DNA of 64,000 nucleotides from an uncultured Oscillospiraceae bacterium (GTDB taxonomy: Bacteria > Bacillota > Clostridia > Christensenellales > Aristaeellaceae). This document shows positions 32,829 through 38,244 of this stretch, piece by piece. The stretch's first letter is position 1. Each line of letters begins with the position of its first letter. Below the pieces are notes generated by a model that saw only the letters and a program-made list of their open reading frames with translations, made no database searches and was not told where the DNA came from. The translations under genes and the position numbers were made by a program. The stretch lies in contig CAZCCZ010000002.1 in assembly GCA_964497495.1 (NCBI GenBank), positions 72,134 to 136,133 on the forward strand. The letters are read 5' to 3'.

Positions 32829-32857
32829 TTGACAAGCGCAACCCGTTCCTTTACAAT
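32829..32857 (+). promoter_or_regulatory. native tRNA-Arg promoter TTGACA-17-TACAAT, now orphaned
   Basis: TTGACA agcgcaacccgttcctt TACAAT, 17 nt before the truncated tRNA 5' half. Lies in GC-rich host-like DNA. Confidence 0.7.
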
Positions 32858-32869
32858 GGCTTTCGGCTT

Positions 32870-32916
32870 CCCTTGCGCCTATAGCTCAGCAGGATAGAGC
32901 GTCCGCCTCCTAAGCG
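32870..32916 (+). repeat. left direct repeat (attL-like), 47 nt
   Basis: Identical to 38163-38209 except C32879 versus T38172. Confidence 0.9.
32875..32916 (+). pseudogene. displaced 5' half of tRNA-Arg(CCT), positions 1 to the anticodon loop
   Basis: GCGCCTATAGCTCAGCAGGATAGAGCGTCCGCCTCCTAAGCG, after which the sequence diverges into AT-rich DNA. No T-arm or 3' acceptor strand. Confidence 0.85.
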
Positions 32917-33192
32917 TAGAATGGGCGCGATCATAACTGATTAGCACATTATTAAACAGAGAAGAATGGCGTATAAATATTCAGCCTGTGAGTTCCGTCA
33001 AGGAGCCTTTTTTATATTGCTGAACATGAATTTTTTGGTGACCATATAAGGCTAGCCCTCATCCTTACCAAGGGGCATTAAAAAGCATATTGGGCAGTAA
33101 AAAGACGAACTTTCGATGGACAGCACTGGCTATTAAAAATGGCGTTTCTACATTGTGTCTGTAGTACTCCACTCATTGTCTAATCTACAAAA

Positions 33193-34335
33193 TCACCTTG
33201 TTGAGCGTCCGCCTCCTTCTCCGGCTTCCTGTTGACAATAAGAATTGTTGTAATAATTTTCAAGCGTACTCCATGTGCGATTAATTTCAGCATTAAATAA
33301 ATCTGTATGATATTCTATAAAAGCAGAATCTTTGACACATGGATCAATGATATTAAGTTCTTTTCTATGTCCTGATGAACATGCACTCTTGATCCTTGTT
33401 GATAGTTCACTATCATTATTCATAAAAGTTTTTCCTACGAGCCAAATCTCTGAGGATAAAGAAAGCGAATCATTAAAGGCAGTGAGGTGAGTAGTCAGAA
33501 TACTGCTTTCATAATATATCTCTTCTTTATCCTTCACTGGATATATTAATATATGAGGAGAGACCCCATCATTATCTGGGCTTGGCAACCCATCTACCAG
33601 TAGATTATAATATACATCCTGTCTATACATGTTATAAAACCAATTCAATGAGCCATGAAGTTTGATCAATCTTACAGGATCTGAGTGTGGGTATTTTTTT
33701 GCAATATAAACCCCCTTGAATCCTAAATTCGAAAATGAACGCTCATCAAGTTTTTCCATGTTGAGTAATGTATAGTCTGCTATTTCATCATAATTAAAGG
33801 AAATGACTGTGTCTTCCTGTGAGAGCATTTGAAATAGTTTTTCATGGTATATGCAATGTCGGTTGTGCCCCAACGCTAAGAACATATAATTATAAAAATC
33901 ATCTGCAAACAAAGTTTGGAAATTCGTGTAAGCGATATATTGCTCAGCTAATTCTCTGTGCGTTTGAGCATATGTCAATATATTGTGGACAATGGGATAG
34001 TATGAAATATCAGTTGTAAAATTATATATATATTGGGGCATACTTAATATCATCTTTAAGGTTTCTTCTTGAAAAAAAACATACTTTGGTTCTATTTTAA
34101 CTCTTGCTTTTTCTATATAAAATAATGCAGTACAATACATTTCAAAGTCATTATCAACACCTGAATACACATATAACTCATTAAAATCCTTAATTAGTTG
34201 TTCATCTCTTTCTTGATAGTGGTTGTGTGTATTTGGCACCACTTTATGTAAGTCCTTGAGCAATGGAATTTTCATGGAGTTTGCACAACTACAACCGTAT
34301 GACGCACCAGCACCGAGTATTATAAGCTTTGACAT
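33193..34335 (-). CDS. stand-alone SIR2-like (SIR2_2/ThsA-type) domain protein, candidate NADase
   Basis: Ordered blocks IILGAGAS (aa 5-12), ISFNYDEIADY (N181-Y-D), IKLHGSLNW (H227-G) and IWLVGKTFMNNDSE (aa 297-310). SD AGAGGGA. Low-GC island cargo. Confidence 0.65.
   Translation of the reverse strand: MSKLIILGAGASYGCSCANSMKIPLLKDLHKVVPNTHNHYQERDEQLIKDFNELYVYSGVDNDFEMYCTALFYIEKARVKIEPKYVFFQEETLKMILSMPQYIYNFTTDISYYPIVHNILTYAQTHRELAEQYIAYTNFQTLFADDFYNYMFLALGHNRHCIYHEKLFQMLSQEDTVISFNYDEIADYTLLNMEKLDERSFSNLGFKGVYIAKKYPHSDPVRLIKLHGSLNWFYNMYRQDVYYNLLVDGLPSPDNDGVSPHILIYPVKDKEEIYYESSILTTHLTAFNDSLSLSSEIWLVGKTFMNNDSELSTRIKSACSSGHRKELNIIDPCVKDSAFIEYHTDLFNAEINRTWSTLENYYNNSYCQQEAGEGGGRSTR
33203..33217 (+). 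repeat. third att-like fragment (15-nt exact match to the tRNA core)
   Basis: GAGCGTCCGCCTCCT equals the D-stem 3' strand through the anticodon loop of the tRNA. Lies inside the last codons of the SIR2-like ORF. Confidence 0.7.
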
Positions 34336-34511
34336 AAGTATCCCTCTTTCTATTTTGTCAATTAAGTATATTGTAAGTTTCTGTTGGAAGCAAATGAAAC
34401 ATTATATGTTTGACTTTACCCAAAACGACCGTATTTGATAATTATCCATAAAATTAGGAATAGTGCTGAAAACAAGCAGATTTTAATATCAAAACCCATA
34501 TCATAAACATA

Positions 34512-34540
34512 TTGACATTAAACCCCGTATATGATACAAT
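34512..34540 (+). promoter_or_regulatory. serine recombinase promoter TTGACA-17-TACAAT
   Basis: TTGACA ttaaaccccgtatatga TACAAT. Confidence 0.65.
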
Positions 34541-34549
34541 TCATATATG
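34526..34549. promoter_or_regulatory. res/operator-like inverted repeat overlapping the -10 box
   Basis: CGTATATGA-tacaat-TCATATATG, 8 of 9 positions complementary. Confidence 0.4.
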
Positions 34550-34561
34550 GAGGTGTTCTTT

Positions 34562-35125
34562 ATGAAGCTTGGTTATGCAAGGGTTAGCACACTAGATCAG
34601 TCGCTTGATCGTCAGCTTGATAGTCTTAACGCTCAGGGCTGTGAACGTATCTATCAAGAGAAGATAACTGGTACAAAGGCGCATCGTCCAGAGTTGGATA
34701 GAATGATGGAAACCTTGCGTTCTGGAGATGCGTTAGTGGTTGACAGTTTCAGCCGATTGAGCAGAAGCACTAAAGACCTTCTTGAAATGGTGGATCGTCT
34801 GCAAAAGATGAACGTCAGCCTAATCAGTCTGAAAGAGAATCTTGATACGACTACTGCAACTGGCAAGCTGATGCTCACTATGATGTCTGCTTTAAGCCAA
34901 TTTGAGCGCGATATCATAGCTGAGCGAACGGCGGAGGGATTAAGAGCAGCACGCGCAAGGGGAAGGCTTGGAGGCCGTCCTAAGGCGAATACGAAGGCAA
35001 TAGAACAAGCTTTAAAGATGTACGATTCACAGAAGTTCACTATTCGGGAAATTGCTGATAGCACAAAGCTCAGCACCGCGACCATCAATAGGCGAGTGGC
35101 AGAGCGAAAGAGGGTTAACCCCTAA
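34562..35125 (+). CDS. small serine recombinase (resolvase/invertase family)
   Basis: MKLGYARVSTLDQSLDRQ catalytic-Ser N-terminus and C-terminal HTH TIREIADSTKLSTATINRRV. ATG 34562 follows SD GGAGG. Confidence 0.9.
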   Translation: MKLGYARVSTLDQSLDRQLDSLNAQGCERIYQEKITGTKAHRPELDRMMETLRSGDALVVDSFSRLSRSTKDLLEMVDRLQKMNVSLISLKENLDTTTATGKLMLTMMSALSQFERDIIAERTAEGLRAARARGRLGGRPKANTKAIEQALKMYDSQKFTIREIADSTKLSTATINRRVAERKRVNP

Positions 35126-35469
35126 TAATTGATTTGAAGTTGTTATGGGGGATGTTTACAAAAACCCCATTCAGCTTCTTTTTCATATACCTATATAGCA
35201 CTTTGAGAAAACAAAAATGAAGAAATTTTATTTTGAAGGTAATGTGGCAACGCGCCTATAATCATCCAATAAAACTCACAAGATACATGCAACCTGTGTC
35301 ACATTCTAATGATATATATAGATTGATCGTTTAATATATTGTGCTTCACTCCAACATAAGCATGGTTTGTGGGTAAATACCATAAAAACCCTTTGCTTTC
35401 AACGATTTTGGAATGAATTTGGATGATATTTGGATGTGAATGAAATGCAGAAAAAGTTTTGTTACCCTC

Positions 35470-35498
35470 TTGACAGATGATTTAGCATGTGATATATT
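35470..35498 (+). promoter_or_regulatory. promoter TTGACA-17-(TGa)TATATT upstream of the Rep-like gene
   Basis: TTGACA gatgatttagcatgtga TATATT, with an extended -10 TG. Confidence 0.55.
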
Positions 35499-35597
35499 TA
35501 TGTTTCCCCGACTAGGGGATAGTTTTATTTATGCTATTTTAGATTTGCTGACTAGAATAGCACATTATTCTGGGAATATGGTGAAGTTAGGAGGCAC

Positions 35598-36464
35598 GTG
35601 GAAAACCTTGAATCATTTCAATTTGAACCCTTTGTACACACATTTTCGTTTATAACAGAAGATATTGTTTATCAAAAAGGCGATACTGTATACAAACCAC
35701 AATACGTACGTAATATTTATCGCCATCCCGATTCGACAACGTTCACCATAAATCCAAATAAGGTATGTGGTGAGCTTCGTAGCATAAAAGCCTTGGGAAA
35801 GGCAATTCACTGCATTATGGATGACCTTGGTATTAGAAAGATATGTTTCACACGAATTGACTTTTGCTTTAACACCTGCGTAGATTTTGAAAAATGCTAT
35901 AAAATCAATGACTTAATAAAAAAACTGTACGGCCTAATAATAAAATCAAGAAATTCATATTATACCTTTGGAGATGATCATCAAAAACGCAGTACCAAAG
36001 TTGATCATAAATCATCTTCACAAGAAACCTATAATAAGAAAATAGAAAGCAACGGATGTTCCCCTTATAGCACACGGCTGGAGTTTCGCTTCTACCGTGG
36101 GAAACCTATCAGGGGTGTTGAAATGCTTGTACAACATCTTCGTACTGTGTTGATCAATCTACCTAAGTATTATAACGCATTGGTTGATCAGCATTATGAA
36201 TATCTTTGTGCTGCATATGAACGGGAACGACAAAGCGATTATGAAGGCCGTATATTATCTGTTGCAGAATTTATCACAAAGTATGCCAACTCATTCTTTT
36301 GTTATGAGCTGACAAAGAAGTTTTATAATCATTATCGTACTGGGTCATTTAAAGGTTGGCTGTGTGGTTATCGGAAGAAGCACGTTCTAACATTCTATGC
36401 CCCAAAAGATGTACAAGAATATTTATCTTTGCTTCAACGGTCACTTGATGAATATACAAAGTAA
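35598..36464 (+). CDS. Rep_trans-like replication initiator/relaxase (tentative)
   Basis: Blocks FVHTFSF, CFTRIDFCFN and ETYNKKIES..STRLEFRF resemble the D.L.FT / R.D.A.D / YDK..E...R.E.. pattern of PF02486 proteins. GTG start lies only 3 nt after AGGAGG, so the start is uncertain. Confidence 0.4.
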   Translation: MENLESFQFEPFVHTFSFITEDIVYQKGDTVYKPQYVRNIYRHPDSTTFTINPNKVCGELRSIKALGKAIHCIMDDLGIRKICFTRIDFCFNTCVDFEKCYKINDLIKKLYGLIIKSRNSYYTFGDDHQKRSTKVDHKSSSQETYNKKIESNGCSPYSTRLEFRFYRGKPIRGVEMLVQHLRTVLINLPKYYNALVDQHYEYLCAAYERERQSDYEGRILSVAEFITKYANSFFCYELTKKFYNHYRTGSFKGWLCGYRKKHVLTFYAPKDVQEYLSLLQRSLDEYTK

Positions 36465-36924
36465 ATAGAGTATTGACCACAGAACGCTAGTACGAACAGA
36501 ACTATGTACTGAAAGCGTTGTTACCTCTATGTTTTCATAATCCATCGTGATTGATGTTGTCTAATTTGTATACCTTAATATAGTTTGCAGTAACTATGAT
36601 ACTGTGCTTACCAATTCCCAGAACCGTCTTTCAGCAAGAAAATCGACTGCTTAATAATTATAATAATATAGATATTGAAAGAAGAATTTTATGGTAGAAA
36701 CTAATCCATCCAGCTTATTTGGAATGCAATTTTCTGGCCTTATGAATAATAATTTTGACAATATAAACAATAATGATTACAATAATATGGTATCTTGTTA
36801 TGCTTTGCTTGGACAAGCTTTTCTTGCTGGTTGCAAAATGCAAGCAGGATACGCCCAGAACCTTGACAATGGAATACCACAGGCTGATTTGATTCATGCG
36901 CCATTGACGGAAGGAGAATCCACA

Positions 36925-37980
36925 ATGGCAAAAAGGAAACAAAAACGTGTTGAAATTGATGGTATTACTCGTTGGGTATCTGGAAAAAACGAGAAGGATG
37001 TTTTTGAAAACCTTGTTCAGTTGGTGAGAAACACAGATTCTGGAACAACGAACACAAAGCAAGGTAAGCCGGAAGCATCGTTTCAAGAGTATACCAATAA
37101 CTGGTATGAGCTTTATAAGGTTAAGAAGATAAAGCATCGTGAACGACAGAACCATCAAACACTATTCAATAAACACCTTTTCCCATTCTTCGGGAATATG
37201 AAACTGTCTGAGATTGCTACAGACGATATCCAAAGGTTTTTTATTCAAAAGGATGATGAAGGGTATGCCGCCTCGACGATTCACAAGATGGATGTGCTTA
37301 TCAAACAGATATTCCGTTCTGCTCTTGAAGATGATGTTATCAGAAAAAATCCTGCTGATAGTGACCGTCTGAATTACAACGACAAAGAAGTCAAACGGAA
37401 AGCCTTGACTATGGGTGAAATGATAACGCTGTATCATTCGTTGTCCAGTCTTGTAAAACCGCAAGATCGTTTGTTAATAGCTATCCCTGCCTTTTCTGGA
37501 ACGAGAAGAGGAGAAACGCTTGCTCTCTGTTGGGAAGATATTGATTGGAAAGATCGAATCCTCCATGTTCATCAGGCGATTTCCTTTGAAAATGGCAAGC
37601 CACGTGTTGGCAAACCAAAAACCGACGCAGGTACACGTGATATTCCCTTGGATAATCGCCTTGCTTCAATGCTAGAACCACTCAAAAAAGAAACAGGGTT
37701 CATTATTGGGGATGGTTTTAAGCCTATTACAGAATGCACATATAGGTGCAGCTGGAAACGGATTAGTAAGGCGATTGAACTAAAGGGCACTACCGCACAC
37801 ACCTTACGGCACACATTTATAACCTTTGCGGAGTCATCAGGAGTTGATGTGAAAACGCTTCAATCTATCGCTGGACATGCTGATGTTGAAACAACCTTGA
37901 ATAGATATACGCATCAGCGAAAGGATATTCTCAAAGACGCAGGTCAGGTGATTGATAAAGTCTTTTCCCAGATCAATTGA
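36925..37980 (+). CDS. int: tyrosine site-specific integrase
   Basis: ATG 36925 follows SD GAAGGAGA. Catalytic blocks GTRRGE, HTLRHTF and GHADVETTLNRYTH. The N-rich 78-codon upstream extension of the ORF is discarded. Confidence 0.92.
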   Translation: MAKRKQKRVEIDGITRWVSGKNEKDVFENLVQLVRNTDSGTTNTKQGKPEASFQEYTNNWYELYKVKKIKHRERQNHQTLFNKHLFPFFGNMKLSEIATDDIQRFFIQKDDEGYAASTIHKMDVLIKQIFRSALEDDVIRKNPADSDRLNYNDKEVKRKALTMGEMITLYHSLSSLVKPQDRLLIAIPAFSGTRRGETLALCWEDIDWKDRILHVHQAISFENGKPRVGKPKTDAGTRDIPLDNRLASMLEPLKKETGFIIGDGFKPITECTYRCSWKRISKAIELKGTTAHTLRHTFITFAESSGVDVKTLQSIAGHADVETTLNRYTHQRKDILKDAGQVIDKVFSQIN

Positions 37981-38122
37981 AATGTGTCAGGGGATGTGTC
38001 AAGCACAAGTGCTTTCTAACCTAGAAAAATAAAGCGTTTGAGAGCGATACAATCCCTAAAAATGTGGCAAGGTTGGTGGCAATAGGATAAAAACGAGAGA
38101 AAACGCCCCTTTACCCTCCGCC

Positions 38123-38151
38123 TTGACATACTGGAACGGTTATCATACAAT
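38123..38151 (+). promoter_or_regulatory. element-borne tRNA promoter TTGACA-17-TACAAT
   Basis: TTGACA tactggaacggttatca TACAAT, 16 nt before the intact tRNA. Lies in AT-rich element DNA. Confidence 0.7.
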
Positions 38152-38162
38152 GATTTCCGTTC

Positions 38163-38209
38163 CCCTTGCGCTTATAGCTCAGCAGGATAGAGCGTCCGCC
38201 TCCTAAGCG
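38163..38209 (+). repeat. right direct repeat (attR-like), 47 nt
   Basis: Matches 32870-32916 with one mismatch. Confidence 0.9.
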
Positions 38210-38244
38210 GAAGGCCTCGCGTTCGAATCGCGATAGGCGCGCCA
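38168..38244 (+). tRNA. tRNA-Arg (anticodon CCT), CCA encoded
   Basis: Hand-folded cloverleaf: GCGCTTA / GCTC-AGCAGGATA-GAGC / TCCGC-CTCCTAA-GCGGA / AGGCC / TCGCG-TTCGAAT-CGCGA / TAGGCGC-G-CCA. One U:G wobble in the acceptor stem. Confidence 0.9.

Follow-up and report, generated by a model that had tools for sequence, protein, structure and literature searches.

A stand-alone SIR2-like protein on a small tRNA-integrated element: a candidate single-protein NADase effector

Can a single small protein of the SIR2 fold, with neither a fused sensor domain nor a partner gene, serve as a complete defence against phages? The question is raised by a 64,000-nucleotide (nt) stretch of DNA, hereafter the window, from an uncultured Oscillospiraceae bacterium (assembly GCA_964497495.1, contig CAZCCZ010000002.1, positions 72,134 to 136,133), in which the gene for a 380-amino-acid (aa) SIR2-like protein is carried by a low-GC island inserted at a tRNA-Arg(CCT) gene. 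With moderate confidence we read this gene as encoding a stand-alone and autoinhibited abortive-infection effector, predicted to be an NADase, that is, a hydrolase of nicotinamide adenine dinucleotide (NAD+), acting as a single protein.

The first line of evidence is the sequence of the protein itself. Its open reading frame (ORF) has the coordinates that an initial annotation, made from the DNA letters, had given it, and the four SIR2 motif blocks noted there are indeed found in place: G8-A-G-A-S12, N181-Y-D183, H227-G228 and G301-K-x-F-x-N-x-D-x-E310. In a close-family alignment of 20 homologues, which share 30-46% identity, the residues G8, A9, G10, A11, N181, Y182, D183, H227, G228 and S229 are invariant, and the same holds for G301, K302, F304, N306, D308 and E310 of the C-terminal block. 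Even among 106 remote relatives N181, G228 and S229 do not vary, while G8, A9, G10, Y182, D183, H227 and D308 are conserved in at least 90%. The motif blocks are not there by chance. In a PADLOC scan, as the initial annotation had proposed, the SIR2 model PDLC04087 matches the protein (E=9.1e-11), and Pfam SIR2_2 is matched at E<=0.01 by 76 of the 106 remote relatives, which are linked to the protein through the family profile. Searches of NCBIfam and PHROGs gave no match for it.

A structural comparison leads in the same direction. The AlphaFold2 (AF2) model calculated on the family alignment has a predicted local distance difference test score (pLDDT) of 88.4 and a predicted template modelling score (pTM) of 0.89. 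When this model was compared with known structures by Foldseek, a check that the initial annotation had proposed, the top 20 matches were all SIR2 subunits of the anti-phage system SIR2-HerA (best E=4.9e-9, probability 1.0); DSR2 comes next, and CobB, Sir2-Af, SIRT5/6, FAM118B and Avs5 are likewise found among the lower matches. Sequence searches of the PDB with the protein and with the family profile stayed below threshold (E=0.21 and 1.5 for the SIR2 subunit of SIR2-HerA). The profile alignment to the PDB is weak overall and was used only for the register of the motifs, in which N181-Y-D183 and H227 coincide with N163-Y-D165 and H212 of PsSIR2 from Paenibacillus. For PsSIR2, N163, D165 and H212 have been named as putative catalytic residues, and autoinhibition by the small domain has been shown (PMC11472057). 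The earlier proposal that the Asn and His of the window protein lie at the catalytic positions of defence SIR2 proteins agrees with this register.

The predicted architecture is simple. The whole chain forms one Rossmann core with a helical insert of ~145 residues (~aa 26-170) after the first strand; in the model, strand β1 covers aa 3-7, helices follow at 26-168, and strand β2 lies at 176-179. In the core family this insert is longer and has conserved positions of its own, namely E65, L120, N138, F143, Y150 and C161. The last of these is the sole invariant Cys in the alignment of 20 homologues, which holds no CxxC pairs and hence no Cys tetrad of a Zn module. The DSSP assignment of the model counts ten strands. 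For the SIRim branch, a systematic absence of the Zn-binding site and a sheet of seven or more strands have been described (bioRxiv 10.1101/2024.09.18.613514). Because the missing Cys tetrad and the ten strands match this description, we place the protein in SIRim rather than among classical sirtuins. No SLOG, Macro, TIR, STAND or APAZ domain was found by Pfam and PADLOC scans or in the AF2 model, and the absence of a fused sensor or partner domain is thus upheld. Judged by sequence and predicted structure, the protein has the SIR2 fold and belongs to its defence-type (SIRim/SIR2_2) branch, with the Asn, Asp and His in place.

How might such a protein work? In the uninfected cell, the NAD+ pocket between the Rossmann core and the helical small domain would be kept closed; such an occlusion by the small domain is proposed by analogy with PsSIR2 and ThsA. 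A phage-derived cue, acting on the helical domain directly and/or via oligomerisation, would open the pocket, whereupon N181, D183 and H227 would hydrolyse NAD+. The loss of NAD+ would then starve the infected cell and halt the replication of the phage. In this scheme the fold, the conserved catalytic residues, the architecture of one domain, the lack of a constant neighbour, the structure of the island and the place of the gene as cargo are observed, while the NADase chemistry, the autoinhibition, the trigger and the defence phenotype are inferred.

How does this compare with known systems? The initial annotation had assumed that all described SIR2 defences are multi-domain or multi-gene, and this has to be corrected: AbiH and sole-Sir2 are single-gene systems, and PDC-S21 is a candidate for another. 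AbiH is a sirtuin-like, single-gene abortive-infection protein of lactococci that was cloned in 1996 and resides mostly on integrative and conjugative elements (ICEs); depletion of NAD+ is its proposed mechanism (PMC13064643). It has also been drawn among the bacterial examples of SIRim (bioRxiv 10.1101/2024.09.18.613514). The window protein resembles it in being a small sirtuin-like protein encoded by a single gene, without a fused sensor and on an integrated mobile carrier. The carrier differs, however, being a mini-element of 5.3 kb with integrase and resolvase instead of an ICE, and the AbiH model is matched by only 5 of the 106 remote relatives. Sole-Sir2 is a single protein of ~440 aa that converts NAD+ to ADP-ribose in vitro, and one of its close homologues makes E. 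coli resistant to T2 and T4 (bioRxiv 10.1101/2024.12.27.630466). Here the likeness is that of a small stand-alone Sir2-like protein proposed to be a complete defence system. By its description, sole-Sir2 joins a non-SIR2 N-terminal part to a C-terminal, DSR2-like Sir2 domain, an architecture different from that of the window protein, since the SIR2 core of the latter starts at residue 3. The PADLOC candidate PDC-S21 comprises small proteins that match the same family profile and have been flagged bioinformatically as defence-related; it is matched by 18 of the 106 remote relatives. The many uncharacterised proteins with SIR2_2 alone are likewise small and match this profile; compared with both groups, the core family has the longer helical insert.

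In structure the window protein comes closest to the SIR2 subunit of SIR2-HerA (Nezha; PDB 8sub, 8w9l, 8wld), which is of similar size (~380-415 aa), combines a bilobed Rossmann core with a helical small domain and has the N-Y-D and H-G-S motifs in register. The TM-score to the window protein is only ~0.45 and the identity 12-17%, and there is no herA gene in the island or beside any close homologue, while two of ~78 loci of the wider family have one. ThsA, DSR1/DSR2, the SIR2-APAZ/short prokaryotic Argonaute (pAgo) systems and Avs5 share with the window protein a defence-type SIR2 domain with the catalytic N/H pair, and depletion of NAD+ is their established mode of action. They differ in their fused SLOG/Macro, large C-terminal, APAZ or STAND domains or in their partners ThsB and pAgo, none of which the window protein has. 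Thoeris, in which ThsA is a SLOG/Macro fusion next to the TIR-domain protein ThsB, finds no counterpart here in either domain or TIR gene, and DSR1/DSR2 are proteins of ~1000 aa with an N-terminal SIR2 domain and a large C-terminal sensor, as opposed to 380 aa in a single domain. In concept the window protein would work like these systems, and it is a member of none of the named families.

Is it then exceptional in size? A HMMER scan with the family profile covered 1.84 billion representatives. It retrieved 43 matches at E<=1e-30, with a core family of ~20 full-length clusters, and 2,460 clusters (50% identity) at E<=0.001. The best 150 of these 2,460 are all <=431 aa long, the full-length ones ~320-430 aa, so that the label "unusually minimal" once given to the protein no longer fits. 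The core family is a rare one, its members being scattered over Anaerotignum, Methanothrix, Aenigmatarchaeota, Omnitrophota, Spirochaetales and metagenomes from anaerobic digesters.

The genomic surroundings of these homologues give further hints. Defence or toxin-antitoxin (TA) genes lie near the homologue in ~5 of 12 close-family contexts. Close homologues are found near a type II restriction-modification (R-M) system with C-protein (L089-91), near an MmeI-type R-M enzyme and a Ser/Thr kinase (L175), and near DUF433/DUF5615 and PIN TA modules (L088). In Methanothrix, a VapB gene lies near the homologue (L005). A truncated homologue from Spirochaetales (L011 9935-10741) retains aa 117-365 only, is directly followed by a VapBC pair and is likely a pseudogene. 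At one further locus (L008) the neighbours are without annotatable function. An Omnitrophota homologue is found in an apparent defence island (L010 6715-16830), with a 679-aa SIR2_2-TPR protein and a 315-aa protein upstream, and HEAT-repeat and other proteins as well as an 880-aa AAA_21/AAA_23 ATPase downstream. The R-M, TA and SIR2_2-TPR/AAA_21 neighbours of several close homologues speak for a role in defence.

No partner emerges from these comparisons. When the genes directly beside the window gene and beside eight close homologues were compared all against all by BLASTP, no protein proved to be shared. In the wider family, ~78 loci provided 150 immediately adjacent ORFs, among which Pfam and PADLOC revealed no dominant family; the most frequent were ResIII (5), type I restriction endonuclease (4), PbeA (4) and HerA (2). 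ORFs and sequence confirm that the window gene is monocistronic and that the resolvase gene next to it is divergently oriented. The survey of neighbourhoods that the initial annotation had proposed thus found no conserved partner, and a constant location of the homologues on islands was not observed either, as several close ones adjoin ribosomal-protein or UvrA genes. The SIR2-like gene is genuinely stand-alone and not consistently found on mobile islands.

Several observations weigh against the reading as an autoinhibited NADase effector. The protein misses the gathering score of Pfam PF13289 (SIR2_2), scoring 11.7 bits (E=0.27) where 24.5 are required, so this proposed check failed; because the relatives and the PADLOC model do match, SIR2_2 membership is assigned by transitive homology and fold. 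Together with the core family of ~20 clusters it stays below the thresholds of both the PDC-S21 and the SIR2_2 models, and it gives no Pfam or PADLOC match to AbiH (PF14253) even at E<=1. Precedents are also mixed: the sole-Sir2 genes linked to CRISPR were themselves not protective in the phage tests made (bioRxiv 10.1101/2024.12.27.630466), and the SIR2 protein of SIR2-HerA has minimal NADase activity without its partner (PMC11472057). The close-family neighbourhoods are a small sample of only ~12, and some of them look like housekeeping contexts, with homologues beside an L13/S9/S2/EF-Ts operon (L177/178; L177 3590-5449) or near UvrA and Rce1-like (CPBP protease) genes (L006 6132-11176, L179 796-3215). 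No integrase was found at any homologue locus examined, and searches of 2.9 M viral contigs and, by tblastn, of 50,697 phage records and 72,556 plasmids detected no homologue. Finally, the C-terminus has been changed by read-through into a fragment resembling an attachment (att) site, which might impair the protein.

Could the protein be an effector that needs a partner encoded elsewhere? It would then be an orphaned module, served by an unlinked HerA-, pAgo- or TIR-like sensor of the host, or by the resolvase or the backbone protein ORF288 of its own element. The best structural match does belong to a two-gene system whose SIR2 alone is barely active, Argonaute-associated SIR2 models are matched by 74 of the 106 remote relatives, and HerA is the immediate neighbour in two wider-family loci. 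In Methanothrix, a 168-aa gene without Pfam match (L004 9498-10004, equivalent to L009 and L005) and the homologue share 4 nt at the start of the latter, which suggests that the two form an operon; as the other loci lack a counterpart of the 168-aa gene, it could be a partner confined to this lineage. The island, however, holds no HerA, pAgo, TIR or SLOG gene, the close homologues compared have no neighbour in common, and the SIR2-like gene is transcribed divergently from both the resolvase gene and ORF288, which, since they also adjoin a different gene in a related element (L092), are not specific partners. We therefore regard an orphaned module as unlikely.

The homologues in housekeeping surroundings raise a different possibility, namely a non-immune sirtuin-like enzyme, be it a deacylase, an ADP-ribosyltransferase acting on a protein or small molecule, or an NAD-dependent regulator, for which the location on an element would be incidental. 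The subclade P0015-P0020, of high GC content, occupies stable-looking contexts (ribosomal operon, UvrA, Rce1-like), a hint of vertical inheritance and perhaps of a function outside defence, and classical sirtuins (CobB, Sir2-Af, SIRT5/6) do appear lower among the fold matches. Against such an enzyme stands the missing Zn-binding Cys tetrad, a site systematically absent from SIRim (bioRxiv 10.1101/2024.09.18.613514). The best matches by hidden Markov model and by fold all belong to the defence-type branch, the distribution over bacteria and archaea is patchy at 30-46% identity, and R-M and TA genes neighbour several homologues. Taken together, a non-immune role appears distinctly unlikely, and the reading as a defence effector is preferred.

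What kind of element carries this gene? The island has a GC content of 0.30-0.45 (~32.9-38.15 kb) compared with ~0.62 in the rest of the window, and it is flanked by a 56-nt direct repeat (32861-32916 and 38154-38209; 93% identity, spacing 5293). The right copy consists of the first 42 nt of an intact tRNA-Arg(CCT) gene and 14 nt upstream of it, while the left copy is an orphaned tRNA 5' half with a partial tRNA match in Rfam (32875-32929). Direct repeats made of a tRNA part, an integrase gene adjoining the tRNA and a deviant composition are the marks of a tRNA-integrated island, and all are present. The best explanation is that the island came from a low-GC donor and entered the tRNA-Arg(CCT) gene of a Clostridia-like host with 62% GC; comparison of the island DNA with plasmids gave no match. 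A sugar ABC ATPase encoded in the flanking DNA shares 81% identity with a protein from a Candidatus Limiplasma metagenome-assembled genome, which places the host approximately.

When islands integrate, it is usually the 3' part of the tRNA gene that becomes duplicated. In this case the duplication concerns the 5' half, whose original copy was left orphaned upstream of the island together with its promoter. The orphaned chromosomal promoter reads TTGACA-17-TACAAT (32829-32857; 11/12 in a promoter scan). At the other end, attR combines an element-borne promoter (TTGACA at 38123-38128, TACAAT at 38146-38151) with an element-borne tRNA 5' half (repeat 38154-38209), so that the intact tRNA-Arg(CCT) at 38168-38244 is composed of an element-borne 5' half and a chromosomal 3' half (ARAGORN; Rfam 65.4 bits). 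The initial annotation of a 5.3-kb tRNA-integrated element was thus right in size, repeat and coordinates, while it took the repeat for the 3' end of the tRNA and overlooked ORF288. The features are collected in Table 1.

Table 1 Features of the island and its relatives; positions refer to the window unless a related locus (L092, L094) is named
Feature	Position	Strand	Basis or remark
Low-GC island	32917-38153	.	56-nt direct repeat at both ends
attL	32829-32916	+	Orphaned chromosomal tRNA promoter and original tRNA-Arg(CCT) 5' half (32875-32916)
AT-rich 286-bp segment, no credible ORF	32917-33202	.	Between attL and the 15-nt att-like copy
SIR2-like (SIRim-type) protein gene	33193-34335	-	380-aa ORF; family alignment, PADLOC, AF2, Foldseek
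Third exact 15-nt copy of tRNA 5'-half piece, GAGCGTCCGCCTCCT	33203-33217	+	Repeat search; inside 3' end of SIR2-like ORF
Probable expression signals of SIR2-like gene	34341-34406	-	Minus-strand sequence
Small serine recombinase (resolvase/invertase type)	34547-35125	+	Pfam Resolvase E=1.2e-44; PHROG DNA invertase E=1e-67
ORF288	35598-36464	+	Backbone protein; between resolvase and integrase genes
Tyrosine integrase	36691-37980 as listed	+	Pfam Phage_integrase E=9e-20; PHROG_1 integrase E=1e-64
attR	38123-38244	+	ARAGORN, Rfam, repeat, sequence
ORF288 relatives	L092 2573-3508; L094 299-1168		
HTH_17 excisionases, 64-66 aa	L092 3768-3962; L094 1412-1612		Between ORF288 relative and integrase

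Apart from the SIR2-like gene, the island holds three credible ORFs. ORF288 found no match in Pfam, PHROG, NCBIfam or PADLOC, and its only relatives among 5.8 billion proteins are two sequences of 60% and 51% identity. The AF2 model from these three sequences is poor (pLDDT 59), no Foldseek match at E<=0.001 and no PDB profile match were obtained, and tblastn against plasmids gave none either. A function in replication or mobilisation is possible; its conserved motifs RIDFCFN, YNKxIES and TRxEFRFY may resemble those of Rep_trans-type initiators. The integrase gene ends 188 nt before tRNA-Arg(CCT). Its ORF as listed opens with an Asn-rich, low-complexity leader of 78 aa (36691-36924), and because homology begins after M79 (SAM-like N-terminal domains from aa 131, PHROG_1 alignment from aa 89), the true start is probably M79 (MAKRKQKRVEIDG...) at 36925.

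Related elements show which parts belong together. In L092 and L093 the ORF288 relative has a resolvase gene on one side and an HTH_17 excisionase with a tyrosine integrase on the other; the contig of L094 is short and starts just before the ORF288 relative, so that only the side of excisionase and integrase is visible. The resolvases of L092 and the window are 85% identical in aa sequence. All three related elements adjoin a tRNA-Ser(GGA) gene in the usual 3'-end orientation, and their integrases are only 22-26% identical to that of the window. A tblastn search with the Xis proteins of the relatives detected no excisionase (xis) gene in the window, where the gap at 36465-36925 would be its place. 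Since the integrase has diverged and xis is absent, the module of resolvase and ORF288 has here been joined to another integrase and another tRNA target, and excision of the window element may not be possible. From this comparison we conclude that resolvase and ORF288 form a conserved backbone to which integrase and target site can be swapped.

On the other side of the resolvase gene, DNA similarity between the window and L092 starts ~60 bp upstream of the resolvase start; left of it, L092 has an unrelated repeat protein in place of the SIR2 gene. The SIR2-like gene is thus variable cargo of the element. Having been called its only cargo is fair in that the other ORFs are backbone and the slot differs in L092, the single comparator locus, though the element comprises four ORFs and not merely one plus recombinases.

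Is the cargo gene intact and expressed? A perfect TATAAT lies at 34406-34401, and a ribosome-binding site, AAGAGGGA, at 34348-34341 is separated from the ATG by 5 bases. A consensus scan found no full -35/-10 pair on the minus strand of the upstream intergenic region, so the promoter is a putative one. The 3' end of the gene has a history of its own. By alignment, homologues stop within a few residues of a "YYN" motif near residue 367 of the window protein, which gives a native length of ~367-369 aa (~codons 1-369). The window ORF continues for ~11 codons, EAGEGGGRSTR (33193-33228), which are absent from all homologues. Inside this extension, 15 nt of the tRNA 5' half, GAGCGTCCGCCTCCT, recur without a mismatch; the window holds three copies of this piece, against 0.00 expected from 100 shuffles. 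The copy within the extension, the third, is probably a relic att site, with an earlier tandem integration as the simplest reading, and the adjoining 286-bp segment is possibly the stump of that earlier element. The present stop codon, 10 nt past the 15-nt copy and hence outside it, would on the simplest reading have been supplied by foreign DNA of the earlier element. Because the stop codon is outside the site, recombination there would change the C-terminal tail.

Such an altered end could mean that the gene is a decaying or inactive passenger, whose function went when the native 3' end was lost at the boundary of the element. The C-terminal 11 residues are non-native and predicted to be disordered (pLDDT <50 for residues 374-380), a truncated homologue exists in L011, and the element may itself be immobilised, given the missing xis gene and the divergence of the att repeats to 93%. 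Yet aa 1-367 align over their full length with all invariant residues kept and without frameshift or internal stop, and an identical stretch from resolvase through SIR2 to attL recurs in a contig assembled independently from SRR8925806 (L007). A short added tail may be tolerated, given that homologues vary in length at the extreme C-terminus. Inactivity is accordingly quite improbable in our view.

Least probable of all is an element-serving role as toxin-like stabilisation or exclusion factor, which would penalise loss of the island or block competing mobile elements: the tail that would differ after recombination at the 15-nt copy, the lack of the relatives' xis gene and the tiny size of an element that carries nothing else would suit it, and its activity might depend on the integration state because the 3' end of the ORF crosses the att-like site, but no antitoxin-like ORF, RNA family, tandem repeat array or hairpin lies beside the gene (type III antitoxin-like RNA was sought), the homologues elsewhere are not on recognisable mobile elements, and a relic of tandem integration is the simpler account of the 15-nt copy.

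The stand-alone NADase effector is therefore the reading that we carry forward. A much bolder version of it, which we consider doubtful, would treat the core family of ~20 clusters as a self-contained sensor-effector of ~367 aa with its family-specific helical domain (aa ~26-170) as the phage sensor. It would be shared horizontally between bacteria and archaea (Methanothrix, Aenigmatarchaeota) and ferried by ~5-kb resolvase-ORF288 mini-elements, a previously undescribed family that swaps integrases, tRNA targets and a single cargo slot.

What would an active protein add? It would contribute a divergent family, invisible to Pfam at its curated threshold, to the growing group of single-protein SIR2 (SIRim) NADase defences, and it would present a very small integrative element as a shuttle for a one-gene defence. 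With ~367 aa and members in both bacteria and archaea, the family offers a compact model for infection sensing without fused sensor or partner. The current picture remains unchanged, as AbiH and sole-Sir2 already establish stand-alone small SIR2 defence on mobile elements; this is a new family member and not a new principle, small stand-alone SIR2 proteins being already known.

Some smaller observations complete the description of the locus. A fold search of BFVD returned giant-virus sirtuins only. The circular junction of an excised element was sought in L007 and not found, this contig showing the same integrated form; if excision made use of the 15-nt site, the C-terminal tail of the protein would change and become longer in the excised form (...GGGRSILLSYKRKGNGNHCMITVPVCQGGG). 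The orphaned tRNA promoter transcribes antisense to the SIR2-like gene, and a terminator-like hairpin (32992-33006, plus strand) lies just downstream of it in the 286-bp segment. Lastly, position 5 of the tRNA acceptor stem is a C in the orphaned half, where it pairs with G, and a T in the working copy, where it forms a G-U wobble.

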